From assembly GCF_004365815.1 (NCBI RefSeq), contig NZ_SODD01000015.1, positions 1 to 21,171 on the forward strand: a stretch of 21,171 nucleotides of DNA, given 5' to 3'. The position numbers and the translations under genes were made by a program. The stretch comes from Breznakia blatticola. Its GTDB lineage: Bacteria; Bacillota_I; Bacilli_A; Erysipelotrichales; Erysipelotrichaceae. The notes under the pieces were generated by a model. That model made no database searches. It saw nothing but the letters and a program-made list of their open reading frames with translations, and was not told the origin of the DNA. Positions 2,917 through 21,171 of this stretch are shown here, piece by piece (within the stretch, counting starts at the first letter, position 1; the number at the start of each line of letters is the position of its first letter).

Positions 2917-2924
2917 AGTTCCTC

Positions 2925-3095
2925 CTATTTATATCGACGATTGTATAGATATAACAATCCAAGTAAACCGCATAATCCAACAAGTTGTACGAGTAGACCT
3001 GCATACCCTATATGTTTTTGTCCTACAATCACCATGGTTAGTGAAGCAATAAAGGTACAAATAATTAAAATTGTTTTAAGTGTTTTATTTTCCAT
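2925..3095 (-). CDS. Untracked small ORF, 56-aa predicted two-TM membrane protein
   Basis: Hand translation gives [56 protein letters not shown]. The ATG at 3093-3095 lies 9 nt after the permease stop and has AGGTG upstream. Its TAG stop (2925-2927) sits inside the Shine-Dalgarno (TAGGAGG) of the ATPase gene. Two hydrophobic helices are separated by GQKH, with a basic C-terminus. At under 60 aa it is below the cut-off of the ORF track. Confidence 0.55.
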
Positions 3096-3104
3096 ATGTA
3101 GCAC

Positions 3105-3974: not shown

Positions 3975-3985
3975 AACATAACCTC

Positions 3986-4879: not shown

Positions 4880-4894
4880 ACGTCTTCCTTTCTT

Positions 4895-4921
4895 AAAAAA
4901 ATAGCGGTGTTGCCACCGCTA
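4895..4921 (-). terminator. GC-rich stem-loop plus T-run between the binding-protein gene and the permease genes (intra-operon attenuator or mRNA stabiliser)
   Basis: The minus strand reads TAGCGGTG-gcaa-CACCGCTA followed by TTTTTTT. It starts 4 nt after the SBP stop and ends ~15 nt before the permease RBS (AAAGGAAG). Confidence 0.65.
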
Positions 4922-4925
4922 CATT

Positions 4926-6269
4926 TTATTTGTTTGCTTCAACAACTTTTTTAAGCCCAGTTAGGAATTCATCATACCATTGATCAACCGTTTTGTCTTT
5001 TGTCATTACTGAGTTTACGGTTCCATATAAGATTCCTTCTGCACCTGTTAAGTCTACACCTTCCACTTGGTTTTCAAGTGCTGCAAATCCAACTGCGTTA
5101 GCTTTTGCACCATTGTCGTAGATTGAGTAGAAAATTTTATTAATGTCATCATCTTTAATGTTGTCAGATGCGTTAACTGTAGGCATTACAGCAGATTTTC
5201 CTTTTGTGTAGAATAATGTAGCTGCTTCATCTGAGTAGCAGTAAGCCATGAATTTTTTAGCTAAATCAACATTTTCTGCACCTTCTGGAATGTACATTTG
5301 TTCTGTGAATGTAGTTGAGTAAGCATCACCATCAGCAGTTACTTTTGGTAAAGCCATCATTCCCCATTCAAATCCTTCAGCTCTTGGTGCATCTTCCATT
5401 TCACCTGGTAACCAAGTTCCATTAGGAATAAATAGTGCTTTGTTGTCTAAGATTGCTTGTTGGTTTTTCGTGAAGTCAGTTCCGTTAGCTTGTGCTACAG
5501 TGTTTGGTTCAATGTATTCAGCAAGTTTTCCAACGATTTCAAATGCTTTTTTCGCATCTTCACTTTCCCAAGTTTTTTCATCATAGTGCATCATTTTGTC
5601 ATATGCATCTGGTCCAGCAGTTTCATTTAATAATGCAGAGAAGAATGCATCAAAGTATCCAGTTGTTGGGTATGTAAATAAAGCAATACCTTCTGCTTTT
5701 GCTTTGTCTCCTAAAGCAAACATTTCATCCCAAGTTGTTGGTACTTCCCATCCTTTTTCAGCAAATAATCCAGCATTGTAGAACAATCCACATGGTGAAT
5801 AGTTAAGTGGTGCTAAGTATAATTTACCATCATCGTAAGGACGTAAGTTTAATGCATCTGTAAATCCAGGAATGATGTTTTCTTTTACAGTTACATCTGA
5901 TCCAGGAATTTTCATGTCTAATAAATCATCAATTGGTTGAATTTGTTTTTCTTTCACCATCGTGTCAGTTAATCCACCTTGTGCTCCAATTGATAGGTAG
6001 ATAATATCAGGAATGTCTTCACCAGCTTGGATTCTTGGACGAAGTACATCTGAGATGTTCTTTTCGAATTCCAATTCTACCTTTACACCTTCGATTTTCT
6101 CAAATTCTTTGGCAACTGCTTCCCAACCGCCAGTTCCAAATCCACCATCAAGTCCTGCAATTTTAAGAACTTTTTCGTCTGTGTCAGCTTCTTTACCAGA
6201 ACCTCCACATCCTGCTAATGCTGTTAACATCACAGCACTCACACAGGCGAACTTCATAAATTTTTTCAT
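4926..6269 (-). CDS. Extracellular solute-binding lipoprotein, family-1 (CUT1) sugar-binding protein (447 aa)
   Basis: The signal peptide carries a lipobox (MLTALAG-C-GGSGK). Size and composition are typical of oligosaccharide SBPs. The RBS is AAAGGAGGA. By context it is the importer for the GH112 substrate disaccharide. Confidence 0.88.
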   Translation of the reverse strand: MKKFMKFACVSAVMLTALAGCGGSGKEADTDEKVLKIAGLDGGFGTGGWEAVAKEFEKIEGVKVELEFEKNISDVLRPRIQAGEDIPDIIYLSIGAQGGLTDTMVKEKQIQPIDDLLDMKIPGSDVTVKENIIPGFTDALNLRPYDDGKLYLAPLNYSPCGLFYNAGLFAEKGWEVPTTWDEMFALGDKAKAEGIALFTYPTTGYFDAFFSALLNETAGPDAYDKMMHYDEKTWESEDAKKAFEIVGKLAEYIEPNTVAQANGTDFTKNQQAILDNKALFIPNGTWLPGEMEDAPRAEGFEWGMMALPKVTADGDAYSTTFTEQMYIPEGAENVDLAKKFMAYCYSDEAATLFYTKGKSAVMPTVNASDNIKDDDINKIFYSIYDNGAKANAVGFAALENQVEGVDLTGAEGILYGTVNSVMTKDKTVDQWYDEFLTGLKKVVEANK

Positions 6270-6407: not shown

Positions 6408-8570
6408 TTAGACCGTAAACCATTTGATTTCTGTTGGTTCCAATTCTACTTTGTGGGTTTGGCCATTTGTTGTAAAAACCGTTGCTTCTTGTTTCTCATA
6501 TGTATTGTTTACCACACAGTAACTACTTGTTGATGGATACATATTTACTTCCACATTGTAGTTATCTGCATACCACTCTTCAATTTGATCTTCTTTACCA
6601 GCTGCATAGAACAAACTACGGTATAAAAGTCTCGTGTTTTCAAAGTTAAATGGTAATCCACTCATGTAAACTGCACGTCCTTTTCCATAATTATGCACTG
6701 CCAAGTTCACACTTTTTCCAGTCGTCTTAATTACAGTTGTATCGCGATCAGCATATGCAAATTGCACCTTATTTCCAAAGTTAAGCGTCTCTGGTAAACC
6801 TTTTGTAATGAAGTGTTCATGCTCATCCCAGTTATACTTGTCATGAGATAGGGTGAATCCAACTTCTTTATCTACACCAAGCACATCATATAATTGGAAA
6901 TAGTGTCCTTCTTTTTGATATGCACTAGGATCTCCAATTCCGATAAATCCATTTCCTTGGTATATATATTGACGTATTTTTGTAACGATCGCTTCATTTT
7001 TCCAGTATTCTCCTCCCGAGAATGATGTATATGCATCACCAACGTTTAGAATCACTCCTGGAGTATCAAGTACATCTTGACGTTCTAGTAATTCATCAAA
7101 ACTGATGAATTCGATATCTACTGGCAAACCACTTAGTGCTTCCAAATATCCTTCATAACCATAGTTGTCTTCGTATGGAATGGCATGATGTACCATGTGT
7201 GCACCCCATGAACGTAATTTTCCATACGAGTTAAGTACATATACTTTGAATGGTACACAGTATGGTTGTACTTGATTAACTTTGTCATACAATTCACGGA
7301 ATTCATCAGCAACTTCTTTAACATAGTCGATAAATTCTGGGAACTCCAATGCTAGTTTTAAGTATCCACCATAACCAATACGGTCAACTGGTTTTCGTAA
7401 TATCGCACGTCTTGCAGTTACCCAGTTCACTTTTGCTTCATGTAAAGGATCGCCTCCTTCATGGAACGTATCTGGGAAGAAGTATGGAAGTAATCTTCCT
7501 TCTGTATATTTCACACCTGGAATATCTGAGATGATTCGTAATGTTGAACCATTTCCTACACTTCCTACAACTGCATCCAAGCCAACTTCTTTAAAGTATT
7601 TACCATATGGCTCTGTACCAATCCAGTGATCTCCTAAGAACATCATCGCTTCTTTGCCAGCTTCATGTGTCGCATCAACAAATACTTTCATTAACTTACT
7701 AACTTCAATTTGTTGGAACTCCATGAAATCCTTGAATTCTTTGGTTGGAATGACAAACTGTGAATTGTAAGTTCCTTTGTTAATAATGAACTCTGGTCGA
7801 AATGGATAGCCAGCCCATGCTTCAAACTTTTCTAAAATATAAGGAGAAACACTTGCGTTATAGCCAAACCATTCTACAAATGATTCACGCGCTTGTTCAT
7901 CAAAAATCAATGTAAATTGATGGAAGAATGTTGTAAATCGAATCACATCAATTTCTGGATTTTCTTTTAAGTATCGTTTGAACTTATCAATCACATACGC
8001 TTGCGTCTTTGGTTGACGTACATCATATGTCATTTGATGTTCTTCATCTTTCCAATCATTGGTAATCGCATTGTACATATGTACAGGATCCCAAATAATG
8101 TATGCTAGAAAGCTTACCGTATATGCATGAAATGGTATAGCGTTACGAATTACCACTTCCTGTGTTGCTTCATCATAACTCCAATCTTCAAAGGCTACGA
8201 TTTCACCAGTTGTACGATCGATGACTTCCCACCACTTTGACATGTCATCATTTGTATTTGGTTGTAATAAATCTTTGTAGATATATTTCATGATTGAAAT
8301 TCTCAGTTCATCACTACTTGCACTTTCAAATTGTGACATGATGTATACTTGTTGAATTTCATCTGGGTTTTTTCTTGCCCAGTCATTATCTTTTCTTGTT
8401 GTATAATACGTTGCGTATTTTTTTACATCCAGACTTTTTAGTTCATCTGGCATGACGGTTCCATCGCAATCCCGTATCGCATCTCCACCCCAATAGTCTA
8501 TGATGCGAACGGTTTCACCGATCATATCGATATCTGTAGGGACGGTCAGTCTCCCTTTCTGTTTGCTCAC
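6408..8570 (-). CDS. lnpA: 1,3-beta-galactosyl-N-acetylhexosamine phosphorylase (lacto-N-biose/galacto-N-biose phosphorylase), GH112 (720 aa)
   Basis: GTG start with a GGAGGAG RBS. Long blocks match my memory of Bifidobacterium longum LnpA: YWEVIDRTTGE, YTVSFLAYIIWDPV, VIRFTTFF.QFTL.FDE, GKEAMMFLGDHWIGTEPY, GLDAVVGS.G.G.T.R.I.DIPGVKYTEGR.LPYFFPDTF, YGKGR.VY.SGLP and LL.R.LFYA. Confidence 0.93.
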   Translation of the reverse strand: MSKQKGRLTVPTDIDMIGETVRIIDYWGGDAIRDCDGTVMPDELKSLDVKKYATYYTTRKDNDWARKNPDEIQQVYIMSQFESASSDELRISIMKYIYKDLLQPNTNDDMSKWWEVIDRTTGEIVAFEDWSYDEATQEVVIRNAIPFHAYTVSFLAYIIWDPVHMYNAITNDWKDEEHQMTYDVRQPKTQAYVIDKFKRYLKENPEIDVIRFTTFFHQFTLIFDEQARESFVEWFGYNASVSPYILEKFEAWAGYPFRPEFIINKGTYNSQFVIPTKEFKDFMEFQQIEVSKLMKVFVDATHEAGKEAMMFLGDHWIGTEPYGKYFKEVGLDAVVGSVGNGSTLRIISDIPGVKYTEGRLLPYFFPDTFHEGGDPLHEAKVNWVTARRAILRKPVDRIGYGGYLKLALEFPEFIDYVKEVADEFRELYDKVNQVQPYCVPFKVYVLNSYGKLRSWGAHMVHHAIPYEDNYGYEGYLEALSGLPVDIEFISFDELLERQDVLDTPGVILNVGDAYTSFSGGEYWKNEAIVTKIRQYIYQGNGFIGIGDPSAYQKEGHYFQLYDVLGVDKEVGFTLSHDKYNWDEHEHFITKGLPETLNFGNKVQFAYADRDTTVIKTTGKSVNLAVHNYGKGRAVYMSGLPFNFENTRLLYRSLFYAAGKEDQIEEWYADNYNVEVNMYPSTSSYCVVNNTYEKQEATVFTTNGQTHKVELEPTEIKWFTV

Positions 8571-8830: not shown

Positions 8831-9685
8831 ATGAGTAACAATCGCTATCAAATCATTCGAAAACAACATGAAAAAACGAAGCTTGTTCTTCGTTATATTA
8901 CGCATGCACAAAGGGGTTCAGATTGGCATAGCGTAAAGCATGTCCATGACTTTACAGAGATATTTTTCGTCGTGAATGGCAAGGGACGTTTTCTAATCGA
9001 TAATGAAAGTTTTAGTACATACAGTGATGATGTTGTCATCATCAGTTCCAAAATTCCACATACGGAAAGCCCAATGGAAAATGAAGATTTTGAATACATC
9101 GTATTAGGTGTTGAGGGTTTAGAATTGCAAGATCATAATGGCAATAAATTAGTACGCCAAGTCTTTAATTTAAATAGTGAACATGACAAAATGATGTTTT
9201 ATTTAAATGTACTGTTACAAGAAGTAGAACTTAAAAACGAACGATATGAAGCCATTTGCCACAATATCTTGGAAGTGCTAATCTTTCTAATCATTCGCAG
9301 CAATGATAAACAACTTTCCTATCGAAGTATTACCAAAGGGATGAAAGAATGTGAAATCATTGAAAACTATATTAAAGCAAATTATCATAAAAATATTACA
9401 CTTGATGACCTAAGTGAATTAACGTATTTAAGTAAATTTTATATCAGTCATGCATTTAAACGATATAAAGGAATATCACCGATTTCCTACTTAATTCAAA
9501 CGCGCATACAGCACGCAAAGAAGCTATTAGAGAGCACAAATAAATCAATGGCACAGATTGCTACAGATGTTGGCTTTGTCAGTCAGTCGCACTTCTCACA
9601 AACATTTAAACAAGAAACAAATCATACGCCATTTGAATATCGAAAACTCTCACAAGAACTCAAACAAGATACAGATCGTCAATAA
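8831..9685 (+). CDS. AraC/XylS-family transcriptional regulator, cupin sensor plus HTH_18 (284 aa)
   Basis: The N-terminal cupin-like region reads HVHDFTEIFFVVNGKGRFLIDN...IPHTE. The C-terminal double HTH reads ITLDDLSELTYLSKFYISHAFKRYKGISPISYL...MAQIATDVGFVSQSHFSQTFKQETNHTPFEYR. It is divergent from the phosphorylase operon. Confidence 0.9.
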   Translation: MSNNRYQIIRKQHEKTKLVLRYITHAQRGSDWHSVKHVHDFTEIFFVVNGKGRFLIDNESFSTYSDDVVIISSKIPHTESPMENEDFEYIVLGVEGLELQDHNGNKLVRQVFNLNSEHDKMMFYLNVLLQEVELKNERYEAICHNILEVLIFLIIRSNDKQLSYRSITKGMKECEIIENYIKANYHKNITLDDLSELTYLSKFYISHAFKRYKGISPISYLIQTRIQHAKKLLESTNKSMAQIATDVGFVSQSHFSQTFKQETNHTPFEYRKLSQELKQDTDRQ

Positions 9686-9824: not shown

Positions 9825-12494
9825 TTACTTCTTTACTTTCTTTTGATACCCAAAAGTAAGTACAAATGCTGATGCAAGTAACATCAATACCCATACACCT
9901 GTATTGGTAGTATCTGAAGTATCTGTTCCTGTTGTTGGTTTTTCTTCATTACCAGGAGCGATATTTGGTTTTTCTTCATTTGGTTTTTCACCTGGTTTTC
10001 GTAATTGATTAATTGCATTTGTAAGTTCTACTTTTGCTTGTAATACATCACCTGCAGTTGCACTTGGATCACTTAAAACAACTTTTGCATCTGCTAAGGC
10101 ATCTATGAATACTTTCCATGTTTCTTTAGTGTAATCTGCTTCTTTTAGTTTTGTGCAGTCATCAACAAGATCCTGTAGTTCTGTTTTATCTACTGCTTCA
10201 TTACTAACTAAACGACTTACCGCATCCATTAGTGCATCATATGCAAGATCAATTTCACCTTGTAATGCTTGGTTGTTAGCTAAAATTGTCTTCGCGTTTT
10301 GAAGTTGTGTATGTACATCATTCCATGATGCTTGTGTATAATCCGCTTCATGAAGCGCTTCTACTGCACTAACAACGAACTGTAGTTTTGTCTTATCACC
10401 TAAGCGAACAAGTGCATCCATCGCTGTTTCTAGCGCTGCTGTAGCTGCATCAACTGCCTCTTGGCTTTCTGGATTTGCTACTACACCATTTGCATGTGTA
10501 AGCACGTTTGTTAGCTTCTCAACACTTGCAGTTGTATATAATGTTTTATCCAAAGCATTTGCTTTTGCGATTGCTTCAGTAAGTTTATCAGTTTGAATTG
10601 TTGGTGTTGTTTGTTGTTCAATAATATCCAATGTTGTGCGAATATCTGCTTCTAATTGATTCACTTTCGCTTGTGTGTTACGTGCAAGTGTATCTTGATT
10701 CTCAGCAAGTAACATATGCATCTCTAGTAATTCAATCACTTCTGGATCTGCTTTTAATCCACTTCCTTGTTTTTGATTTTCAAGAACTGTTTTTGCTTTG
10801 GCAATTGTTGCTTCTAAAGAATTACAATCCACTAAAGCATCACCTTTAATTAGTAATAATTGTAACTTAGTTGCTTGTTGCTCTGATGCACTTCCTTTCA
10901 TATCAATTTTAAAAGTATCTGATACAACTTGACCTTGTGTTGTTAAATCAAAGGTTTGACCTTCTACTTCATGGATACTATTTTTCCATGGAATCGATAC
11001 ATTGTTTGTAATTGGTACCCATTGATCACCTTTTTTTGCTGAAATTGCGATTGTTGATACCCCATGTGATTTTGGTTTGTCTGTTAAGATCAATAATTCT
11101 TTAGCATCAATTGCTTGATCAAAAGTTAGATAAATCGATCCATCAAGTGCACTACCAAATTCCTCAAATGTTACGCCCGTTCCTAATTGGCCGTCGATTA
11201 AATTTTCTAATTTCCCTTCTTTAATCGTTACATTTTCTGCTTGGATTTCCACCTTTTTAGAAAGTTCATTTTGGCTTGCATAGAACGTTTGAATTTCATT
11301 ATTAAGCTTTGCTAGTTCTGCTTCATAATCCGCTTCACTTACATCAGGATTTGCAGCAACAACTTTTGCTTGTTCTAATACAGCAAGCAATGTTTGTACA
11401 CTTGTAGTACTAAACTCTCCGTAATTATCCCCAATTAATAATCTACGTAAGTTTTTCTCCATTGCATCAACAACGGCATTTAATTCACCAATTTTACGAA
11501 CAAGTTTTCCATTTGGCTTAACTAATCGCATATTGATTTTTGTTGAACCCCATTGTGCATATCCTGCATTTACTTTAATTCTAAATTTTGTAGTTTGTAC
11601 TGCTTTTTTAAGCGTATAAACTAGATTTTCTTGTGCTTGTACACCTGCTTTTGTTTTCCAAGCAAATGTTACATTTTTTTCGAGTGATTTCCATTCGCCA
11701 TCTTCAAAGTATTCAAAATCTGCGTTTTTAATTCCTTGACTTGTTGGATACCAACCAATCATTTCGACGCGATCGATTTCTACAAGATTTGTATAGTCAT
11801 ATACGATATATGCATTTTTCCCCGACAAATCACCACCAGGTCCAAAATCAATATCATTTGCATCTGGGTTACTCACAAAGTAATCCATCTCTCCTTTTTT
11901 TAGTGTTAAGTTTTCAAAACTTACTACTGGTTTTGTCATTCCCGATGTAGCTGCATCATCAATTTTTGGTGCAATTACATGCATACATGTTTTCTTGCTC
12001 CATCTTGTGTTTACACCCAACACAACAATACGAATATCTGTTGTTGTAATTGGTTGATGGAAGTATTTTGTAAGTGTCGTTGGCCCACCAACACTACCAT
12101 TTGCATAGGTAACTGGTGTTTCTTCTAAATCTACCCATTGGTCTTGATCTTTGTATTGTACTTTATACTTATTAATCCCTTGTTGATCACCCCACCAACC
12201 AGTGAATGTTACACCAATAAACGTTTCCTCTTGATCATATGCATACGCAAAATACGCATTTCCTTCACTCATCAATTGTTCATCCACGAAGAAATTAAAA
12301 TCTTTCTTGTTTTCTAAATTCACTAAATTTTCATACATACTTGGTGTTGTATCTGAATTTAAAGTAATTCCATTTGTACTAATTATTGGCAGGTTATCTT
12401 TTGCTAGAACTTTAGCATTTCCCTGTATGATAAACATACTCAATAAAAGGACTGTCGCAATTATACATTTCCCAATTTTATTTATGTATTTCAT
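9825..12494 (-). CDS. Secreted surface protein: three beta-sandwich (galactose-binding-domain-like, putative CBM) modules, FIVAR-type helical stalk and C-terminal TM anchor; no recognisable catalytic domain (889 aa)
   Basis: The signal peptide reads MKYINKIGKCIIATVLLLSMFIIQGNAKVLA. Three ~120-130-aa modules (aa ~60-178, 195-328, 420-552) share a discoidin-like pattern (hydrophobic-x-V...GW/W...G(I/V)...Y...W..L.....W........RI.V). FIVAR-like repeats carrying the Y-T-x-x-S/T-W motif span aa ~555-833. The tail reads TDTSDTTN-TGVWVLMLLASAFVLTFGY-QKKVKK. The RBS is GGGAGG, 11 nt after the upstream gene stop. Confidence 0.75.
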   Translation of the reverse strand: MKYINKIGKCIIATVLLLSMFIIQGNAKVLAKDNLPIISTNGITLNSDTTPSMYENLVNLENKKDFNFFVDEQLMSEGNAYFAYAYDQEETFIGVTFTGWWGDQQGINKYKVQYKDQDQWVDLEETPVTYANGSVGGPTTLTKYFHQPITTTDIRIVVLGVNTRWSKKTCMHVIAPKIDDAATSGMTKPVVSFENLTLKKGEMDYFVSNPDANDIDFGPGGDLSGKNAYIVYDYTNLVEIDRVEMIGWYPTSQGIKNADFEYFEDGEWKSLEKNVTFAWKTKAGVQAQENLVYTLKKAVQTTKFRIKVNAGYAQWGSTKINMRLVKPNGKLVRKIGELNAVVDAMEKNLRRLLIGDNYGEFSTTSVQTLLAVLEQAKVVAANPDVSEADYEAELAKLNNEIQTFYASQNELSKKVEIQAENVTIKEGKLENLIDGQLGTGVTFEEFGSALDGSIYLTFDQAIDAKELLILTDKPKSHGVSTIAISAKKGDQWVPITNNVSIPWKNSIHEVEGQTFDLTTQGQVVSDTFKIDMKGSASEQQATKLQLLLIKGDALVDCNSLEATIAKAKTVLENQKQGSGLKADPEVIELLEMHMLLAENQDTLARNTQAKVNQLEADIRTTLDIIEQQTTPTIQTDKLTEAIAKANALDKTLYTTASVEKLTNVLTHANGVVANPESQEAVDAATAALETAMDALVRLGDKTKLQFVVSAVEALHEADYTQASWNDVHTQLQNAKTILANNQALQGEIDLAYDALMDAVSRLVSNEAVDKTELQDLVDDCTKLKEADYTKETWKVFIDALADAKVVLSDPSATAGDVLQAKVELTNAINQLRKPGEKPNEEKPNIAPGNEEKPTTGTDTSDTTNTGVWVLMLLASAFVLTFGYQKKVKK

Positions 12495-12505
12495 TGTGAA
12501 CCTCC

Positions 12506-14002
12506 CTACTTCAAGATGCCAAGGACATTGTTTCCTTGTACATAATTTAAATCATTGGCAAATCGAATCGTCGTTCCATCTTCCACTTCTGCGCGAATTG
12601 CTACCATATATGGTTTTGATGCGTCTGGTCGTGTAAGTTGTACGTTAATTTGCTTATTACCCGGCTGTAATTCACTTGCCTTGCACATACTTGTTGCATC
12701 TACAACAGTTCCCTTTGCATCAAGTAATACAAGTTCCATCTTTGTGACTTTGTGTGGTGCAGAAAATCCGTAGTTAGCAATATCTACAGACACATTTACA
12801 ACATCATCCTTTACTGTTGCTGTTGCACTTTCCACTTTTAAATAGTATCCTAAATAATCACGTAAATATTCAAACATGTTTCGTGGAATGTTGTTCCCAT
12901 CAGCATCCATAAACCATGCTTCATCGTAAGGTAAATCATATGTATCTAAAATGGCTTGGTTCACATATTCGTGTTGCCACTCTGCCATACTATATGTTTT
13001 TCCTTGTTCTTTATTTTGTTCTTTGTAGTTATGTGTCATAGACAGTGAAGTAAAATGATGTTCTTTCATACGTTGTGCAATTAAATATGCATTAATTGCT
13101 TTACCACCTGTATAATATCCATTCGCACTTCCCCAAATCATTTCTCCATCCACGAGAAGTTGTTTGGATTCTTCTGTCATTTTCTTCCACTTTGTCGCAT
13201 TTCTATCTGCTCCTGCAGTATTCCAAGAGTGTAGTACACCAATTAGAAAGTCATCATGGAATGCTACTCGATTATAATCTTCACTTGTATTAGGCACATT
13301 ATTTTCTTTAATGTATGAATAACGTACTTGTACTTGCATATCTTTTGGTGTTGCTGCTAATACTGCATCCATTACCGCCTTATTGTCAATACGAGACATC
13401 GCACCTGAATCCCATTCTCCCCATGCACCAACAATTCCTGCTTGGAATACATGGATTTGATCTTTATGTTCTTCAATGAATGGTTTTACTTGCACCATAT
13501 GACGTTGAATTTGAGCAAGTGTTGGTTCTTGCGATGTTGGATTTGAATCATTTGAAACATATGCAAAACGGAAAATTGCTTTAAGATCATGTTCTTTTAG
13601 CTTATCAAAATAAGCATTCATGTTTTTAAATGCATTATCATCTAAGTCTTTATCCTTATATCCAGTTAGATAAAAATACACTTGAATCAATTTTGGATTA
13701 TCTGACTTGTATGTTGCAATTTCATTTTCCAATTGTTCAATTGCATCTACTGTTTTGTACTCAAATAAACTCTTATTGGTTTCCACATTGAGATACACTT
13801 CCATTCGATATCCACGGTTTGGATTCTCTTGAAGCAACATGCTTTGATTTCCATCTAGACTTTTCACATTGAAGTCATATGTTTTTTCTTTTGGAATCAA
13901 ACTTCTCTGATTTAGTAAAACATTTGTGGAGATCATTCCACCAATTAATGCAAACACTAACATTCCTAGAACGAAGTATTTGCTTCTTCTCAATTTGTCC
14001 AC
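12506..14002 (-). CDS. N-terminally membrane-anchored putative glycoside hydrolase, DUF4874/DUF4832-like TIM-barrel plus C-terminal beta-sandwich (498 aa from GTG 14002; 508 aa from ATG 14032)
   Basis: The tracked ORF is 12506-14032. The ATG at 14032 has no RBS. An internal AAGGGAGGT (14011-14019) lies 7 nt before GTG 14000-14002, giving (M)DKLRRSKYFVLGMLVFALIGGMISTNVLL, a signal-anchor. The motifs ENPNRGY (13811-13825), GIVGAWGEWD (13412-13426), AFHDDFL and VDGEMIWG resemble my memory of the DUF4874/DUF4832 pair of predicted clan GH-A-like hydrolases. This was not verified by search. Confidence 0.6.
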   Translation of the reverse strand: MDKLRRSKYFVLGMLVFALIGGMISTNVLLNQRSLIPKEKTYDFNVKSLDGNQSMLLQENPNRGYRMEVYLNVETNKSLFEYKTVDAIEQLENEIATYKSDNPKLIQVYFYLTGYKDKDLDDNAFKNMNAYFDKLKEHDLKAIFRFAYVSNDSNPTSQEPTLAQIQRHMVQVKPFIEEHKDQIHVFQAGIVGAWGEWDSGAMSRIDNKAVMDAVLAATPKDMQVQVRYSYIKENNVPNTSEDYNRVAFHDDFLIGVLHSWNTAGADRNATKWKKMTEESKQLLVDGEMIWGSANGYYTGGKAINAYLIAQRMKEHHFTSLSMTHNYKEQNKEQGKTYSMAEWQHEYVNQAILDTYDLPYDEAWFMDADGNNIPRNMFEYLRDYLGYYLKVESATATVKDDVVNVSVDIANYGFSAPHKVTKMELVLLDAKGTVVDATSMCKASELQPGNKQINVQLTRPDASKPYMVAIRAEVEDGTTIRFANDLNYVQGNNVLGILK

Positions 14003-14103
14003 AGACGTACCTCCCTTTATGATTACTCTCATCGTAACATTTACACTTTTTTATTTCTTACGCAATAAAGATGAGTATTTAACAAACGTATAAAATATGG
14101 AAC

Positions 14104-14117
14104 CGTAAGCGTTTACA
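14104..14117. promoter_or_regulatory. cre-like box in the divergent spacer between the DUF4874-like operon and the second AraC gene
   Basis: CGTAAGCGTTTACA matches TGWNANCGNTNWCA at 13 of 14 positions. It overlaps a possible -35 (TTTACA, 14112-14117) for the AraC gene, with AATAAT 17 nt downstream. Confidence 0.5.
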
Positions 14118-14160
14118 AATTCTATATTTTAGGTAATAATTATATTGTGAGGGAAATACT

Positions 14161-15033
14161 ATGGATAGAAACGATACACAATTGGAGCATACATTTTTAG
14201 AACAACTACAAGGGAATTTAATACATAACGCTCTAATCCAACACTTACCAGAAAACTATCATTTTGGACCACATACACATCGAAATATAGAAATCTGTGT
14301 CGTTCAAAATGGAGAGTGTGATATTATCATCAATGGAAATCGAGTTACCGTACATAAAAATGAATTTATTGTTTTATTTCCACATGTAATTCATAGTTTT
14401 CAAGTAAAAGAAAATACAACATGCACATTTATGCAAATGCATTTTTACTTGGAACACTTTGAAGCACTAAATTCAAGTCTGAAAAAAGATTTGAAATTTA
14501 TGCAATACCTATCCAAGAAAAGTAAATTGTATATTAAAGCACCAACAACTCATCAAATTCAAAACTGTATGGAGCGTATTACAGAAGAAATGCATCATAG
14601 ACATAGTAAAGGGAATGTCTTATCCAACTTATACATATTTGAAATAGTACTCTTGTTATCTAGAGAGATGGAACCTAATTTTCACAATCAACACAGTGAA
14701 GAAAACTTACATGTCGCAAAAGCGATTCAATACATTCATGAACATATTGAAGAACGTCTACCGCTAGATGAAATTGCGTTATATTGCAATATAAGCAAGC
14801 GACATTTAACCGATTTATTTAAACGTTATTTACGTATCACAGTAAATGACTATGTACAAATCACCAAACTAAATTACATCATGGATTATATGTCCGACCA
14901 TCATACAAATTTGACTGAACTCGCATATCGGTATGGATTTAGTAGTCCACAATACTTCTCAACAATATTCAAGCGTATTGTTGGTGTAAGTCCTAAGGAA
15001 TTCTTAAAGATGAAATCTGTAAAACACAACTGA
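14161..15033 (+). CDS. AraC/XylS-family transcriptional regulator, cupin sensor plus HTH_18 (290 aa)
   Basis: The cupin-like N-terminus reads HTHRNIEICVVQNGECDIIINGNRV...FPHVIHSF. The C-terminal double HTH reads LPLDEIALYCNISKRHLTDLFKRYLRITVNDYV...LTELAYRYGFSSPQYFSTIFKRIVGVSPKEFLK. The RBS is GAGGGA. Confidence 0.9.
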   Translation: MDRNDTQLEHTFLEQLQGNLIHNALIQHLPENYHFGPHTHRNIEICVVQNGECDIIINGNRVTVHKNEFIVLFPHVIHSFQVKENTTCTFMQMHFYLEHFEALNSSLKKDLKFMQYLSKKSKLYIKAPTTHQIQNCMERITEEMHHRHSKGNVLSNLYIFEIVLLLSREMEPNFHNQHSEENLHVAKAIQYIHEHIEERLPLDEIALYCNISKRHLTDLFKRYLRITVNDYVQITKLNYIMDYMSDHHTNLTELAYRYGFSSPQYFSTIFKRIVGVSPKEFLKMKSVKHN

Positions 15034-15044
15034 ATATTTCATAA

Positions 15045-15074
15045 AAAGATCTCTACGGCTTTGTAGAGATCTTT
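15045..15074. terminator. Bidirectional terminator between the convergent AraC and 1680-aa genes
   Basis: AAAGATCTCTAC-ggcttt-GTAGAGATCTTT, a perfect 12-bp stem. It is flanked by an A-run on the left and a T-rich run on the right, so it can serve both strands. Confidence 0.8.
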
Positions 15075-15082
15075 ATTATTAC

Positions 15083-18000
15083 TTATTTCTTTTTCATTTT
15101 TCTTGTATAGCCAACCCCAATCCCTAGTGCAGATAATGCAAGTAACATCAGTAATACATTTATATTTGTTGTATCACCTGTGTCTGTACCATCTGCTGGT
15201 TTATTTGGTTTTTCAGGTGAAATACTTGGCAATTCTTTACTTGGTTCTTTTAGTTGGTTAATTGCATTTGTAAGTTCAACTTTCGCTTGTAGAACATCAC
15301 CAGCTGTTGCATTTGGATCTTCTAAAACTGTTTTTGCTTTTTCTAAAGCATCCACAAATACATTCCAAGAATCTTTTGTGTAATCAGCTTCTTTTAGTTT
15401 AGAACTGTCTTCAACAAGATCTTGCAATTCATCTTTTGCAACTTCTACAGTGCTTGTTAGTTTACTTACTGCATCTAATAATGCATCGTATGCAGCATCC
15501 ACATCACTTTGTAGTGCTTGATCATTTGCTAATACGACATTCGCTTTTGCAAGTGCATCTGCTACAGCTGTCCAAGTTTCTGGCGTATATTCACTTTCAT
15601 CTAACACTTCAACGATATCAACTAATACTTTTAACTCAGCTTTATCTCCAAGTTTTACAAGTGCATCAATTGCCGCTTGTAAGTTTGCAGTAGCACTATC
15701 TAGTTGACTTTGTTTGTCTGCTTCATTAAGTGCTTTCTTTGCTGCATCTAGTGCAGTTTGTAAAGCATTTGCTGTTTCTGTAGTGTATTTACTTTGATCA
15801 ATTTTCTCTGCTTTTGCAATTGCATCTGCAAGTTTTGTCGAATCAAGTTTTACACGAACAAGCGCATCTTTTGCAGTAGTATATGCATCTGTAACACTTG
15901 CAATTGTTTCATCTTCAATATCCAATACATGTGACGCTTCGATTAATGCATCATATGCATCTTTGTAATCTTTATAGCTATCTGCAGTAAAGTATTCTGG
16001 ATCTTCTAATGTTTGTTGAGCTACAAAATCTCTAAATGAGTTGTAATCACCAATTGGTTTAAGTTCTTGGAAGAAACGAAGTTCAACAGCAGCAGCATGT
16101 TTTGCTTGTACTCCATAATCACTTAATACTTTGATTCGTACTGCTGAAGAAGTCACAACATCATCAAAGTAAATCATTTGTGCACCACCATCATTGATTG
16201 TACCTGTTTTTACATCAACCCAATTTCCTTCATCATCTTTCACTTGAATCAAGTAGTCTTTCATGTTTCCATTTGTTTTTGCAGTACGTCCAGTGTACTC
16301 CATAGAATCAAATGATAGTTCTTCACCAAAGTCTAAAGCAATCCAGTGATCACGTGGATCTGGGTATGCTGCAGCCCAGTTTGAGTGCCACAATGTATTT
16401 GTTTTTCCATCGATGGCAAATTTTGCTGGTCCTTCTGTTTGTGATTTTCCATATTCAGAACTTGCTGTTGCAGTCCAATCTGTACGATCTAATTCTTTTG
16501 TTCCTTCAAGGAGTAAACCTTTGAATTGATTTTGTGCATCATCGTATCCAACACTCACATTTTTAAATGTAAGATTTCCAATGAATCCACTAAATTCTTT
16601 ACTACCAACAGTAACTTTTGCATTTGGATTTGTTGGTAGTGATGCATCTGGTAAATAGATTGAGCTATGTAAATTTCCATCTACATACACTTTACATAAA
16701 CCATTTAGTTCTCTAGCTACAGCTACTGTGTGAATTGCATCGTCAGCAACTTGTCCCACATATTTTGTTGTTGTCGTTGTAGGTACATACTCTGCAGTTC
16801 CTACTAATCCATGTTCAAGATCAACTACTTCAGTAATCAATTCTTTTGAAGATAATGTTTCTCCATTAATTGTAGTAACGATATATCCTTCATCATCAAT
16901 TGCGACTGTAAGTCCATCTTGATTGTATACTACGGCATTCTTAGATGCTGTTTTTAGAATAAATGATAGTCCAAATTCACCAACACCGTCAAATGTGTTT
17001 GTATCTTTTAGCTCGTATGCTTTTTTATTCAATCCAAACATCGGAATATCTGCACGTGATAATGATCCTTGAATAACATCAGCATCATCTTTAAAATCAT
17101 CTGTTGTTGTTAAGGCTGCAACTACATGATCTTCATATGCTTTTACTTCTAATGTATCATTTGCTGTGTTTCCTGCAATATCAGCATATGTCACTTTCAC
17201 TTCGTTTGTTTTTGCTAATGGACTATCACATACAACACGAGCAGTACGGTAATCTTCTAGTAAAGTTATTGAACTAACTTCATTTCCTTTAATTGTTACT
17301 GTTAGTTCATCTGAAATACGTTCACTAAAACGAATATCTAATGTTTTATCATCTGTATTTCTAACAACTTCAATTGTTGGTGCTTGACCATCTTGAATTC
17401 CATATTGGTATGCAACCATTTCATATGGCGCAAGTTTTACAGTTACACTATCTCCATAAGAGATTGTTTTATCATCTGCTTTATTTTTGTATGGACAGAT
17501 CTGTGTTTGTTTCACACTTTGTACATCTGTAGCTACACCAGCATTTCCATCATATGTGAATGTATACTCTTTTTCTGATGCTGTTGGGTTTCTAAAGTAT
17601 ACAATTCCTTGATTTCCATCCCATGAAGAGTATCCATAAATTCCTTGTTTTGATTTTGGTGATGAACCAAATAGTTTAGCTTTTTCTAAGATTTCTTCAT
17701 TTGCTTCTGCAAACTCTAGTACATCAGCTGTTACTTTCCATTTTGCATCATCCATCATATCAGGAGAGAAATATAATTCCCAGAATGCAGTTCCACGCAT
17801 TGCATTCGCAAACATGTAGTCTCTGAATTCTTCAGTATTCATTTTTACTCCTGCTGCATTTCCATAAATTGGATCATGGTTGTATACATTTTTCAGTGGG
17901 AATTGGAAGTCTCCATCCACTCCATTCACAAAGTAAACATTATCACGACCAGAAATCATTTTTGCTGATTGTGTACCACCATTCGTCGCATCACTAGCTA

Positions 18001-20125
18001 AGTCTCCAGCATTTTGTTGCCAAACAGTGTTTACCCATTGTAAGTGCCATGGTGAAGGATTCACATAACAAGTTGCATTGATAAACAACCCTTTTCCTTC
18101 CGCAGCTCTTTGTGCTCTCATCGTTTCAAACACATCAATCCAACGTTCCCATAATTCACTTGTATAGTACATGTTGTTGTCTCCACCAACCATGTGTTCA
18201 CTTTCAGCATCTGTACTTGGTCTTGATGCAAATCCATCAAGTTTCCAGTAATCAATATCAAAACGTGCTTGGTAATCTACAAATAGTTTTTCTAATAAAT
18301 CAACATAGTTTTTCGAACTAACATCAATTGCCTTTTTCAAAGCAGCGTTATTGTTTACATATCCAGTTCCTTTACTTTCAAGGTACTCTGAGAATGTTTT
18401 ATTTAATTCGTATCCACCTTGAGGTCCTAACCATAATCCAAATGTCGATGCAAATTTCTTTGTCATTTCCATTGATGGATATAATTCATTCGGGAATTTA
18501 TCATTGAATTCCCAGAATCCAGTACGGTTGTATGAGTTTCCTGAACGACCTACATCGATTCCAGTATATGTTGGATCGTTGTAGTTATTCCATCCATCAT
18601 CAACTACATAAGAATCAAGTGGTTCTACACCATTTTGTGACAATCCTTTTTCTGATGCATAGAAAATACGTTGAATACTTTCATCTGTAATTCCCATACG
18701 GTTTTCATACCAAGAATTGTATTGTGTTCTAAATGTTGTTTTTGTTGCGATTGTATCAATGTATGCAAAGAAATCAGTTTGCACAACATTTTTATCTGTA
18801 CCCACTGCAGCACCAACTACATTTGGCCATGTTTGATAACTACCTTCACTTAATGCACCTTCTGCTTCTAATTGTGCAATACTTTTTCCAGAGTAGTAAC
18901 GGATTTTCATTGTATCTTTTACAATGTTTGTATCTGTTGCTGGGAATTCGCTTCCAAAGAACATTCCATCTGCATAAATTGGTTGCCCAAGTTGCATTTC
19001 TGGAGCTAAGAAGTTATATGCACCTTCTGCTACATAGTAACTATCTGGACGACTCCATACTCCTTCAACTGTATTATCCAACACAAAATGATCCATTTCG
19101 ATGTAGTCAATTCTTGCTTTTTCTTTATCATCGGCATTTACGCGTACAAAACTACGCATAAAGTAATCACCATCTAGCATTGTTACATGGTATGAGAATG
19201 TCCAGTTTACACCATCTTTTTTGTATGGTTTATACATGAATGCAAGTTCTTTACCACCTTGAATTTCATTCACCTTAACTTGATCAATTGTTAAATTTGA
19301 TGAACGAATTACACTATCTTCTTGTACTGCTTTTTCATATGTATCTTCATACAAACGAACTTCTGCCATACAAAATGATTTTGACCCATATACATCTGAT
19401 TTTTGAATCAAACGTACATAACGTGCATTTTGTGGAGTATCAAAGTTAGCATATACTAAATCACCAACATTGTATAAGTTACCTACTTGGTGAATATTGT
19501 AATCCGCTTTCGTGAATTCACCTTCTCCTGCTGCAGTCCAAGTCGTTCCATCATTACTTGTTTGAACTTCATATTCACCAACAGTTCCATTCACTCCCCA
19601 ACTTGCATTTGTACTTCCTTGACGTTTTTGTAATGAAAATGATTTGAATTCTTTTTGTTCTTTCAAATCGATTGTCACTACATAAGGAAATTTATTTCCT
19701 ACGTAGTAATCAATATCTGTTGCATCATTTGCATCAAGAAGTGCAGCTGCATCTTTTGAACCTGTACCATCATTCGTTGCAATCGTTGCTGACCAACCAG
19801 TTCTCGATAACTCTTTTACTGGTTTTACATCTTCGACAACGGTTCCGCCAGAAATAATGTTTACTTCAAAGTCATTTGACTTTGTCGCCGGTTTTAATTG
19901 TTTATTAATTCGATGGTTTGTAATATCTATCGTATTTACATGCCCATCTTCAATTTTAAAATTTCGTGTAAGGTATTCATTACCGATACTTGCCTTATCA
20001 CTTTCATTTGTTACACTCACTGTCGCGCCAGTTTCCTTGTTTAGCGTTTTCTCAGTTTGTGGAAATAATGAAACAATACAGCTCAGTAACAACCCAAGTA
20101 CCAAACTCTTTTTTATTATTTTCAT
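15083..20125 (-). CDS. 1680-aa cell-surface multidomain glycoside hydrolase: F5/8-type-C (CBM32-like) module, clan GH-D (GH27/GH36)-like catalytic core, Ig-like module, LamG/ConA-like module, second F5/8-type-C module, FIVAR stalk and C-terminal TM anchor
   Basis: Signal peptide MKIIKKSLVLGLLLSCIVSLF. The first discoidin module (aa ~105-260) contains WSATIATNDG...YVRL...MAEVRLYE. The core spans aa ~270-905 and carries YVVDDGW (aa 506-512; the DDGW codons are nt 18590-18601). It also carries FGLWLGPQGG, DIDYWKLDGF (K628-L-D630, nt 18236-18244), INATCYVNPSPW and VWQQNAGDLASD. This mirrors the order of the GH36 blocks DDGW / FGLW.EPE / KWDMN / CSSGG / W.SDN.D. The Ig-like module is aa ~915-1000 and the LamG-like module aa ~1005-1200. 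The second discoidin module (aa ~1210-1353) reads DWTATASSE...FAIDGKTNTLWHSNW...AAAVELRFF. FIVAR repeats span aa ~1360-1625. The tail reads TDTGDTTN-INVLLMLLALSALGIGVGY-TRKMKKK. Confidence 0.8.
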   Translation of the reverse strand: MKIIKKSLVLGLLLSCIVSLFPQTEKTLNKETGATVSVTNESDKASIGNEYLTRNFKIEDGHVNTIDITNHRINKQLKPATKSNDFEVNIISGGTVVEDVKPVKELSRTGWSATIATNDGTGSKDAAALLDANDATDIDYYVGNKFPYVVTIDLKEQKEFKSFSLQKRQGSTNASWGVNGTVGEYEVQTSNDGTTWTAAGEGEFTKADYNIHQVGNLYNVGDLVYANFDTPQNARYVRLIQKSDVYGSKSFCMAEVRLYEDTYEKAVQEDSVIRSSNLTIDQVKVNEIQGGKELAFMYKPYKKDGVNWTFSYHVTMLDGDYFMRSFVRVNADDKEKARIDYIEMDHFVLDNTVEGVWSRPDSYYVAEGAYNFLAPEMQLGQPIYADGMFFGSEFPATDTNIVKDTMKIRYYSGKSIAQLEAEGALSEGSYQTWPNVVGAAVGTDKNVVQTDFFAYIDTIATKTTFRTQYNSWYENRMGITDESIQRIFYASEKGLSQNGVEPLDSYVVDDGWNNYNDPTYTGIDVGRSGNSYNRTGFWEFNDKFPNELYPSMEMTKKFASTFGLWLGPQGGYELNKTFSEYLESKGTGYVNNNAALKKAIDVSSKNYVDLLEKLFVDYQARFDIDYWKLDGFASRPSTDAESEHMVGGDNNMYYTSELWERWIDVFETMRAQRAAEGKGLFINATCYVNPSPWHLQWVNTVWQQNAGDLASDATNGGTQSAKMISGRDNVYFVNGVDGDFQFPLKNVYNHDPIYGNAAGVKMNTEEFRDYMFANAMRGTAFWELYFSPDMMDDAKWKVTADVLEFAEANEEILEKAKLFGSSPKSKQGIYGYSSWDGNQGIVYFRNPTASEKEYTFTYDGNAGVATDVQSVKQTQICPYKNKADDKTISYGDSVTVKLAPYEMVAYQYGIQDGQAPTIEVVRNTDDKTLDIRFSERISDELTVTIKGNEVSSITLLEDYRTARVVCDSPLAKTNEVKVTYADIAGNTANDTLEVKAYEDHVVAALTTTDDFKDDADVIQGSLSRADIPMFGLNKKAYELKDTNTFDGVGEFGLSFILKTASKNAVVYNQDGLTVAIDDEGYIVTTINGETLSSKELITEVVDLEHGLVGTAEYVPTTTTTKYVGQVADDAIHTVAVARELNGLCKVYVDGNLHSSIYLPDASLPTNPNAKVTVGSKEFSGFIGNLTFKNVSVGYDDAQNQFKGLLLEGTKELDRTDWTATASSEYGKSQTEGPAKFAIDGKTNTLWHSNWAAAYPDPRDHWIALDFGEELSFDSMEYTGRTAKTNGNMKDYLIQVKDDEGNWVDVKTGTINDGGAQMIYFDDVVTSSAVRIKVLSDYGVQAKHAAAVELRFFQELKPIGDYNSFRDFVAQQTLEDPEYFTADSYKDYKDAYDALIEASHVLDIEDETIASVTDAYTTAKDALVRVKLDSTKLADAIAKAEKIDQSKYTTETANALQTALDAAKKALNEADKQSQLDSATANLQAAIDALVKLGDKAELKVLVDIVEVLDESEYTPETWTAVADALAKANVVLANDQALQSDVDAAYDALLDAVSKLTSTVEVAKDELQDLVEDSSKLKEADYTKDSWNVFVDALEKAKTVLEDPNATAGDVLQAKVELTNAINQLKEPSKELPSISPEKPNKPADGTDTGDTTNINVLLMLLALSALGIGVGYTRKMKKK

Positions 20126-20248
20126 TTGAACCTCTTTCCTTTACATACTACATGCACCCATATGTCGCCAATGATTGAATCTGTTTCCCCGCAAATACAA
20201 TCACTTTTATTGACCTTTTATCAAAAACAAACATCACCCCCGCTTACG

Positions 20249-20262
20249 TGTAACCGCTAACA
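20249..20262. promoter_or_regulatory. cre box (perfect consensus match) in the leader of the 1680-aa gene
   Basis: TGTAACCGCTAACA (minus strand TGTTAGCGGTTACA) satisfies all fixed positions of TGWNANCGNTNWCA. It lies 12 nt downstream of a minus-strand TATAAT (20275-20280), which is the position of a roadblock or early-transcribed operator. Confidence 0.6.
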
Positions 20263-20274
20263 CTTTATATTTTC

Positions 20275-20280
20275 ATTATA
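20275..20280 (-). promoter_or_regulatory. Candidate -10 hexamer (TATAAT) for the 1680-aa gene; weak -35
   Basis: The minus strand reads aaaattaTATAATgaaaat. The hexamer 17 nt upstream is AAAACA, a poor -35, as expected for an activator-dependent (AraC-type) promoter. It lies ~150 nt upstream of the ATG at 20125. Confidence 0.35.
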
Positions 20281-20340
20281 TAATTTTGAAAATAAAATGT
20301 TTTATGGTTTTTAAGCAATGTTTTGCACTTTTCAGTTTGT

Positions 20341-20380
20341 TTTTTTAAAAAATAGGACCAACGCAATCGTCAGTCCTATT
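20341..20380 (-). terminator. Rho-independent terminator of the partial upstream surface-protein gene
   Basis: The minus strand reads AATAGGAC-(14-nt loop)-GTCCTATT followed by TTTTAAAAAA. It lies ~75 nt after the stop at 20456. Confidence 0.6.
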
Positions 20381-20455
20381 TGAAGCGCACAATAACAATT
20401 GATTTTGACTTCTTTCTATTTTTTGAAGTTATTTATTTTTATTGCGACACTAACT

Positions 20456-21171
20456 TTATGCTTTTTTTCTTTTCTTCAAGCCGTATGCAACTGCAATACC
20501 AGATAGTCCAAGCAATGCGATTAAACCAACTACATTTGTTGAATCTCCAGTGTTTGATCCTCCGTTATTATTGTTTGGTTTGTTAGCTCCGATACTTGGT
20601 AACTCTGTTTTTCCATCTACAGCAACTAATCCATTGATTGCCTTAAGTAAGTTATCATGTGCTGCATCAATTTCTGCTTGTGTTGCATTTGTGTTTGTTA
20701 ACACATCTTTAGCTTTATTTAATGCATCTACATAATTTGCCCATGAATCTTTTGTGTAGTCAGTTTCTTTTAACTTGTCACTATCTTTAATAACAGTTTC
20801 AAGTTTAGAAGAATCTGTGTTTGTATCATCGACTTTCACAAGACCTTTCATTGCATTTTCAAGAGTAGTTTTTGCAATATCTACTGCTTGTTGTGTTGCA
20901 TTTGGATCTGCTACTACTGTTTTTGCATCTGCTAATGCATCTTTAAGAACAGCCCATGAATCTGCAGTATAATCTGTTTCAGTTAATGCTTCTGCATTTG
21001 TAATTACAGTTGTAAGTCCAGTCTTATCAACAACTGCAACTGCTACTAAATCATCAATTGCACTTTCTAGTGCTGCTTTAGCATCATCTACTTCTTGTTG
21101 TGTTGCATTTGTATCTGCTACTACTGTTTTAGCATCTGCTAGTGCATCTTTAAGAACAGCCCATGAATCTG
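20456..21171 (-). CDS. 3' end of a third surface protein (N-terminus outside the window): FIVAR repeats plus the same C-terminal anchor
   Basis: The tracked ORF 20456-20851 starts at an internal Met. I translated the same frame by hand to 21171 and found no stop: ...DSWAVLKDALADAKTVVADTNATQQEVDDAKAALESAIDDLVAVAVVDKTGLTTVITNAEALTETDYTADSWAVLKDALADAKTVVADPNATQQAVDIAKTTLENAMKGLVKVDD.... The tail reads SNTGDSTN-VVGLIALLGLSGIAVAYGL-KKRKKA. Confidence 0.85.
   Translation of the reverse strand, partial: DSWAVLKDALADAKTVVADTNATQQEVDDAKAALESAIDDLVAVAVVDKTGLTTVITNAEALTETDYTADSWAVLKDALADAKTVVADPNATQQAVDIAKTTLENAMKGLVKVDDTNTDSSKLETVIKDSDKLKETDYTKDSWANYVDALNKAKDVLTNTNATQAEIDAAHDNLLKAINGLVAVDGKTELPSIGANKPNNNNGGSNTGDSTNVVGLIALLGLSGIAVAYGLKKRKKA
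20903..21171 (-). repeat. Tandem coding repeat with 210-bp period (one FIVAR module per unit)
   Basis: 21113-21171 (ATCTGCTACTACTGTTTTAGCATCTGCTAGTGCATCTTTAAGAACAGCCCATGAATCTG) is near-identical to 20906-20964, with 2 substitutions and 1 indel by eye. The encoded peptide DSWAVLKDALADAKTVVAD.NATQQ occurs twice. Confidence 0.8.

Follow-up and report, generated by a model that had tools for sequence, protein, structure and literature searches.

Three exported proteins share a tripartite C-terminus

The first 21,171 nucleotides of a contig of the gut bacterium Breznakia blatticola (contig C15:1-21171, the whole stretch analysed here, called the window below; the assembly comprises 2.46 Mb in 98 contigs and is 97% complete) encode three large exported proteins whose C-termini look like sortase signals without an LPXTG motif. 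We examined these tails, their relatives in this genome and across the order Erysipelotrichales, and the sortases that might act on them. We propose that a class B sortase recognises these tails as signals for sorting to the cell wall.

All three genes, and the features given for them, lie on the reverse strand; the features were read from the translations and the domains from Pfam matches. The 889-residue protein (9825..12494) combines F5/8 type C (discoidin) and FIVAR domains. Its C-terminus consists of the motif GTDTSDTTN (9903..9929), the hydrophobic segment TGVWVLMLLASAFVLTFGY (9846-9902) and the basic tail QKKVKK, which together with the stop codon occupies 9825-9845. The 1680-residue protein (15083..20125) is enzyme-like, with two F5/8 type C domains, FIVAR and an unannotated centre. 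It ends in the motif GTDTGDTTN (15164..15190, with its Thr at 15179-15181), the hydrophobic segment INVLLMLLALSALGIGVGY (15107-15163) and TRKMKKK plus stop codon (15083-15106). The third gene runs past the end of the window, which holds its C-terminal 237 residues (20456..21169), made up of FIVAR repeats and the anchor; the complete gene (contig C15:20456-27262) encodes a 2268-residue GH101 endo-alpha-N-acetylgalactosaminidase. Here, the motif is GSNTGDSTN (20534..20560, Thr at 20549-20551), followed by the hydrophobic segment VVGLIALLGLSGIAVAYGL (20477-20533) and KKRKKA plus stop codon (20456-20476). The window ends (21171) within near-identical FIVAR repeats of the GH101 gene, where the assembly has a gap (a run of N, read as XXX); the number of repeats there is uncertain.

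Each protein begins with a predicted signal peptide (by inspection, a basic start, then a hydrophobic core and a cleavage region that is polar or rich in Ala) and ends with a polar motif, a 19-residue hydrophobic stretch and a basic tail that forms the terminus itself. The tail strings and positions given in an earlier description of this DNA, made from its letters and their translations (the original prediction), match the translations exactly, and the tail anatomy of all three proteins supports its claim of a sortase-type tripartite signal that lacks LPXTG.

We numbered the residues from the proposed scissile bond, with P1 before it and P1' after it. In the 889-residue protein this bond would follow the Thr encoded at 9918-9920, and the P2' Asp is encoded at 9912-9914. 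Asp is found at P2' in all three tails. A T-G pair spans the proposed bond in two of them and T-S in the 889-residue protein; P4-P3 read G-T, G-T and G-S, and none of the three shows the (S/P)-Pro that the Clostridioides difficile type requires. The final ∼250 residues of the 889- and 1680-residue proteins are 53% identical. The window tails thus resemble one another because they are paralogous, and their likeness alone cannot prove a motif.

The window tails belong to a genome-wide family

Evidence that the motif is not due to chance comes from the whole genome. We translated all long open reading frames (ORFs) and selected those that end in a hydrophobic stretch and a basic tail, with [T/S/A]-x-D just before the stretch. 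This yielded 47 distinct tails, carried by proteins whose N-terminal parts are unrelated. When the tails are aligned on the Thr, their consensus is S-[V/P]-x-T-G-D-T-T-N. P4 is Ser in 18 tails and Gly in 8; P3 is Val in 25, Pro in 14, Ile in 4, Thr in 2, and Leu and Ser in one each. P1 is Thr in 40, Ser in 5 and Ala in 2, while P1' is Gly in 29, Ala in 6, Ser in 4, Asn in 3, Tyr in 2, and Met, Phe and Gln in one each. Asp at P2' was imposed by the selection rule, and ∼47 of 51-52 candidate tails carry it. Downstream, Thr (21), Ser (8) and Val (6) are found at P3', Thr (29) and Ser (12) at P4', and Asn (21) at P5'. The distance from the Thr to the hydrophobic stretch is 6-9 residues in 42 of the 47.

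The pattern TGD[TSEVQP][TSNVY] had 24 matches in the last 45 residues of the long ORFs versus 16 in the eight-fold larger remainder, a 12-fold enrichment at ORF ends. Genome-wide enrichment at C-termini, which the original prediction had chosen as a touchstone, is therefore present, and with the 47 tails on unrelated proteins it argues against chance. A profile built from 43 tails matched 52 places in this genome. LPQTG was read in only one of the 47 tails, and the tails grade continuously into canonical SPxTGD forms and this single LPQTGD. Judged by their sequences, the window tails do not form a family of their own; they belong to a large one, in which they deviate most.

We also searched the phylum with a back-translated T-G-D-[S/T]-T-N pattern. 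This genome gave 7 matches versus 0 for the control, and the matches were concentrated in the family; the sample was dominated by small wall-less genomes and is otherwise uninformative on co-occurrence.

All sortases of the genome are class B

The genome holds three sortase-domain genes, and all three are class B (TIGR03064, 186-208 bits; cut-off 153.75). Two of them sit in five-gene pilus operons together with a signal-peptidase gene, a tip protein and a pilin, and the tails encoded in these operons read ...FTGF... and ...ITGI.... The third is solitary and lies outside the window (contig C8:66281-67135). It encodes 279 residues with an N-terminal membrane segment and is a candidate for the general enzyme. 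Among solved structures its best relatives are Bacillus anthracis SrtB (1rz2, E 1.6e-39), Listeria monocytogenes SrtB and Staphylococcus aureus SrtB; in the same comparison, C. difficile SrtB gave an E of about 1e-27. A class A-type sortase (TIGR01076) was not found in this 97% complete assembly, and no gene in the genome matched the exosortase family (PF09721).

The original prediction had raised the possibility of a dedicated transpeptidase for the tails, and the genome's only sortases, all of class B, provide a matching candidate. The contrary case that it had raised, a genome with only a class A sortase and ordinary LPXTG substrates, is the opposite of what we found.

Class B sortases and similar tails recur in related genomes

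We surveyed 40 related genomes for sortases and read 80 tails from relatives. A class B sortase match was obtained in 37 of the 40, many of which have no other sortase. The tail profile matched 31, 43 and 109 places in three genomes of the same genus (G001-G003) and 0-23 places in other genera. P3 usage differs between lineages. It is Val or Ile in 14 of 20 tails of the same genus and Pro in the other 6; in G037 all tails read SPKTGD or APKTGD; G023 has Pro in 11 of 12; G013 is mixed; and G038 has Val in 5 of 5. In G039, 14 of 14 inspected tails are without P3 Pro (KVKTGD, HVQTSD, QTKTGD, KTKTSD, IIKTED). Their P3 is V, I or T, so that P3 Thr recurs as in the window. Only one sortase gene, of class B, is present in G039, whose genome is 99% complete. 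Comparing sequences across these genomes, we regard G039 as the clearest co-occurrence evidence that class B enzymes may partner tails without Pro.

The spacing between the catalytic Cys and Arg is ∼18 residues (TC-SYESGQNPSNTNTSDIED-R) in the solitary sortase of Breznakia and in the sortases of G013 and G023, versus 6-11 in other relatives. We considered the length of this loop as the basis of the Val-type motifs and rejected it because motif usage does not track the loop: G023 has a long loop yet 11 of its 12 tails are of the Pro type, whereas G039 and G038 have short loops and 19 of 19 readable tails without P3 Pro (mostly Val or Ile, Thr in two).

Orthologs of the window proteins were compared as well. 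The 889-residue protein has an ortholog, P0005, that is 76% identical and comes from unclassified Breznakia. The window form G-T-[D/N]-T-[G/S]-D-T-T-N is preserved, next to a drifting spacer, in three further genomes of Breznakia: we read GTNTSDTTN in G001 (locus L013), GTNTGDTTS in G003 and GTNTGDTTN in P0005, which has T-G where the 889-residue protein has T-S. Conservation of these nine residues beside a changing spacer argues for selection on the motif. The ∼130 C-terminal residues of P0005 are nearly identical to those of the 1680-residue protein (window 15083-15500) and not to those of its ortholog, which suggests that paralogous anchor modules have recombined or undergone gene conversion.

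Some tails of relatives are shared with C. difficile. The tail at locus L027 of G037 is identical to that of CD0386, and the tail at locus L045 of G001 is ∼88% identical to that of CD3392; these cases are probably collagen-binding-type adhesins carried by mobile elements across orders. The proposal in the original prediction that the tails may define a distinct class of sorting signal is not supported: they fall within an order-wide class B type that is known from C. difficile as (S/P)PxTG with Asp after it (PMC4155245), and the two shared tails, one unchanged and one nearly so, count against a separate class too. Our literature searches for sortases of Breznakia or Erysipelotrichaceae returned nothing specific.

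Curated profiles recognise the tails only in part

The LPXTG anchor profile TIGR01167 was matched by 27 of the 43 tails scanned as tails. Every alignment that we inspected begins at profile position 4 or later; the part that is missing is therefore Leu-Pro(-x). The GH101 tail scores 19-21.8 bits (cut-off 15.9) from position 4 onward, and the 1680-residue protein scores 16.4-18.6 bits from position 5, passing only as a tail fragment. The 889-residue protein gave no match. None of the three window proteins matched Pfam Gram_pos_anchor or the two sortase B target profiles, the general TIGR03063 and the NPQTN-type TIGR03068; TIGR03063 was weakly matched by 4 of the 43 genome tails. The doubled-motif LPXTG anchor NF033073 was matched by 9 of the 43 at E <= 0.1 and was rejected, as the best score among the fully tabulated matches was 15.1 bits over the hydrophobic part only, versus 48 required. 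Matches to '-CTERM' profiles were all below cut-off and confined to the hydrophobic part.

Because the sortase B target and '-CTERM' profiles fail and the LPXTG profile aligns in part, public annotation misses the predicted wall anchoring of these proteins. Close relatives of two of them are named 'hypothetical protein' and 'discoidin domain-containing protein', the latter being the NCBI name of the 90% cluster of the 1680-residue protein (discoidin domain-containing protein [unclassified Breznakia]). With such anchors overlooked, the surface proteome of Erysipelotrichales, which comprises about 50 proteins here and >100 in one relative, is under-called.

A second peptide motif lies upstream of the tails

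The original prediction had also pointed to a Pro-containing string upstream of each motif. This string is real in all three proteins: KPNIAP in the 889-residue protein (9954..9971), LPSISP in the 1680-residue protein (15215..15232) and LPSIGA in the GH101 protein (20585..20602), with the Pro exactly 16 residues before the motif Thr in each. Its general form is xP(S/N)(I/V)(A/G/S). P[S/N][I/V][A/G/S] occurs 19 times in the last 90 residues of the 47 proteins versus 161 times in the remaining 872,000 residues of the long ORFs, an enrichment near the tails of about 24-fold; a looser pattern was found in 30 of the 47 tails, versus 0.035 expected per tail. Two arrangements exist. Either the upstream motif is fused to the sortase motif (LPSIATGD, KPSVATGD), which places its Pro at P5, or it stands apart, 6-26 residues upstream, and is then often followed by Pro (NPSIAP, APSVAP). 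The motif recurs in genomes of the same genus. Its codons differ freely and both Ser codon families are used, which argues for selection at the peptide level; for the same reason we rejected a DNA repeat or a recombination scar as its origin.

A parallel to the Breznakia xPS(I/V)A string is seen in G039 and G038, two genera of a sister family, where (V/L/I)(L/Q/M)G(D/E) stands ∼12-20 residues upstream of xVKT(G/S)D in most tails (loci L100-L119).

A second, lineage-specific peptide 4-26 residues upstream of the sorting motif may be a processing, release or docking site for wall-anchored proteins. In C. difficile, release sites of the protease ZmpI (PPEP-1) lie directly upstream of PPKTG in CD2831 and CD3246 (PMC4591827). 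The Breznakia motif is like these sites in being a short conserved motif N-terminal of a class B signal, and ZmpI offers a precedent for regulated release from the wall. Unlike the Pro-Pro bonds cut by ZmpI (VNP-PVP), it has no Pro-Pro bond. The genome encodes one secreted 368-residue protein with an HExxH metalloprotease domain (contig C37:12844-13950; Pfam ATLF, 29.6 bits, the family searched as that of ZmpI), and its gene adjoins no tail-bearing gene. Release sites for a Pro-Pro endopeptidase are therefore not supported, as the motif lacks Pro-Pro and the protease gene is not beside a substrate. A literature search for conserved motifs upstream of sorting signals found none.

The locus resembles a pathway for mucin-type glycans

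Together with their neighbours, the genes of the three proteins resemble the galacto-N-biose/lacto-N-biose pathway for mucin-type O-glycans. The neighbours encode a lacto-N-biose phosphorylase (6408-8570), the solute-binding protein, the pair of permeases and the ATPase of a sugar ATP-binding cassette transporter (1822-6269), a BadF-type ATPase/kinase (900-1832) and two AraC-type regulators (8831-9685 and 14161-15033). The contig starts with an ISL3-family transposase fragment of 190 residues (162-734) that matches only the C-terminal half of the profile. The DUF4874/DUF4832 protein encoded between the anchored genes (12506-14032) carries a hydrophobic N-terminal segment and lacks a sorting tail at its C-terminus; its attachment to the membrane would differ from that of its neighbours. 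As wall-anchored proteins, the GH101 enzyme and its partners would sit on the cell surface.

The centre of the 1680-residue protein is a region of ∼630 residues (residues ∼270-900, window 17426-19315) for which neither Pfam nor a sequence search of solved structures returned a match. A DDGW string within it is also found in alpha-galactosidase-like enzymes, and homologues of the region occur in 12 of 41 related genomes. From its sequence, this region is probably an uncharacterised glycoside hydrolase module.

The tails as predicted class B sorting signals

Taken together, the observed tail anatomy, the spread of the tails and the sortase repertoire suggest, with a probability of about 0.75, that a class B 'housekeeping' sortase uses the three window tails as signals for cell-wall sorting. 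After export through its N-terminal signal peptide, each protein would stay in the membrane by means of the hydrophobic segment and the basic tail at its C-terminus. Cleavage after the Thr of T-[G/S]-D would then be the task of the solitary class B sortase, which would transfer the Thr carboxyl onto a peptidoglycan stem peptide, so that a glycan-binding protein and glycan-degrading enzymes would be covalently displayed on the wall. Recognition would depend on P1 Thr, P2' Asp, the subsequent Thr/Ser and a P3 that is Pro or beta-branched (Val, Ile, Thr), and Leu-Pro would not be involved. We infer cleavage of the three proteins, its position and the acting sortase from C. difficile SrtB and B. 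anthracis SrtB.

Several points weigh against this proposal. Within this genome, Thr or Ser at P3 is confined to the three window tails. The tail of the 889-residue protein has Ser rather than Gly after the Thr, and it is the one that the LPXTG anchor profile leaves unmatched. The invariance of Asp at P2' among the 47 tails reflects the selection rule, and its frequency among the candidates is below 100%. The assembly, at 97% completeness, could lack a further sortase gene. In C. difficile, NVQTG was left uncut by SrtB in vitro (PMC4155245) and two proteins with SPSTG and SPQTG were unprocessed in vivo (PMC5569036), so a plausible motif is no guarantee of anchoring. Finally, cleavage and wall linkage of the Breznakia tails are predictions.

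The same points feed the rival that survives best, namely that the window tails descend from sortase signals and, through Thr or Ser at P3 plus Ser at P1' in one of them, now fall outside the range of the sortase and serve as uncleaved C-terminal membrane anchors, much as in the conserved tail-anchor that the original prediction had named as an option. The rarity of such a P3 (3 of the 47 tails), the sensitivity of C. difficile SrtB to small changes and the failure of the 889-residue tail on the curated profile would all fit. However, a mere anchor does not readily account for a nine-residue polar motif that is conserved across Breznakia species when the neighbouring spacer is not, and P3 Thr recurs in G039, where the inspected tails all lack Pro and the sole sortase is class B. 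We therefore consider loss of processing unlikely.

A different possibility bears on how the sortase would recognise its substrates. The general class B sortase of Breznakia and other Erysipelotrichales may read mainly the primed side, T-x-D-[T/S]-[T/S]-N. Nearly every residue would then be accepted at P4, P3 could be Pro or Val/Ile/Thr/Ser, and the Thr could be followed by residues other than Gly. Taken jointly with the second upstream peptide, this idea is speculative and we would not expect it to prove correct; if true, it would be a specificity undescribed for any characterised sortase.

The original prediction had offered an alternative reading in which the tails end in an x-x-x-T-N resembling NPQTN. 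The cut would then lie right next to the hydrophobic segment, after the second Thr in D-T-T-N. All three window tails do end in T-N, and the class B sortases of S. aureus cleave between these two residues (named in PMC4155245 and PMC11987632). But the Asn is present in only 21 of the 47 tails, with S, Q, D, A, R and T as alternatives, and this reading would put Asp at P3, where characterised sortases take Pro. Moreover, positions 4-5 (Thr/Gly) of TIGR01167 align to the T-G of T-G-D, the sortase B target profiles miss the three proteins, and C. difficile SrtB leaves NPQTN uncut. A T-N scissile bond is thus very improbable.

Least credible of all is a non-sortase system (of the exosortase, archaeosortase or rhombosortase type, or an enzyme yet unknown) that reads T-x-D-T-T-N: the unprimed side is degenerate and a few tails weakly match assorted '-CTERM' profiles, the latter at chance level, below cut-off and over the hydrophobic part only, whereas the genome yielded no exosortase family gene and its tails pass without a break into SPxTGD and LPQTGD.

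Comparison with known class B sortase systems

Cell-wall anchoring by a class B enzyme as the general sortase is known from C. difficile, and the Breznakia tails resemble this system most. The single sortase of C. difficile is class B (SrtB, CD2718; PMC4155245). It cleaves SPKTG, PPKTG, SPSTG and SPQTG peptides between Thr and Gly and leaves LPETG, like NPQTN and NVQTG, uncut (PMC4155245). Its substrates include CD2831, in which mass spectrometry showed the Thr of PPKT linked to diaminopimelate (PMC4591827), and CD3246; CD3392 was verified experimentally (PMC5569036), and CD2537 is also a verified substrate. The likeness extends to the primed side. T-G-D is present in 7 of 8 predicted SrtB substrates, including SPKTGDSTN and SPKTGDNTN (PMC4155245), whose TGDSTN and TGDNTN are identical to Breznakia primed sides. 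Two native residues after the Gly at least doubled cleavage of SPKTG, PPKTG and SPQTG peptides (PMC4155245).

The differences lie mainly on the unprimed side. C. difficile substrates have Ser-Pro or Pro-Pro before x-T-G; in Breznakia, most tails have Val or Ile at P3, only 14 of 47 have Pro, and those of the window have Thr or Ser. After the Thr, C. difficile has Gly and Breznakia G, S, A, N, Y, F, M or Q. The number of substrates would be about 50 versus eight, and the Cys-Arg spacing of the solitary sortase exceeds that of most relatives compared. The closest C. difficile counterpart of the Val-type tails is CbpA, whose tail NVQTGDQSN has P3 Val followed by T-G-D-x-S-N, the pattern that most Breznakia tails show, SVQTGDETN and VVQTGDSTN among them. 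Processing of CbpA by SrtB was not seen in vitro (PMC4155245), so this likeness is no proof that Val-type motifs are substrates. Whether class B enzymes accept NVQTG-like motifs is a point that the C. difficile work left open, and a genome with mostly P3 Val, together with single-sortase relatives that have no Pro-type tails, offers a natural test.

The closest solved relative of the solitary sortase, B. anthracis SrtB, acts on IsdC with the motif DNPKTGDE. The largest drops in its activity followed loss of the P5 Asp or the P2' Asp (PMC11987632), and the near-invariant P2' Asp of the Breznakia tails parallels the latter. Class B enzymes are thus known to read the two positions that the Breznakia tails conserve best, Thr at P1 and Asp at P2'. 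The B. anthracis enzyme also needs residues beyond the pentapeptide for its activity (PMC11987632). Unlike that enzyme, which serves one haem-uptake protein with Asn-Pro at P4-P3, the Breznakia sortase would serve dozens of proteins without Asn-Pro. S. aureus SrtB and IsdC likewise pair a class B sortase with a motif other than LPXTG. In that case NPQTN is cut between Thr and Asn after Asn-Pro-Gln, whereas the Breznakia tails have no conserved Asn and the window proteins no match to the NPQTN profile.

Since anchoring by class B sortases is already known, the gain from the Breznakia tails is incremental: set beside C. difficile, B. anthracis and S. aureus, they most likely represent a relaxed variant of class B sortase anchoring rather than a new system.

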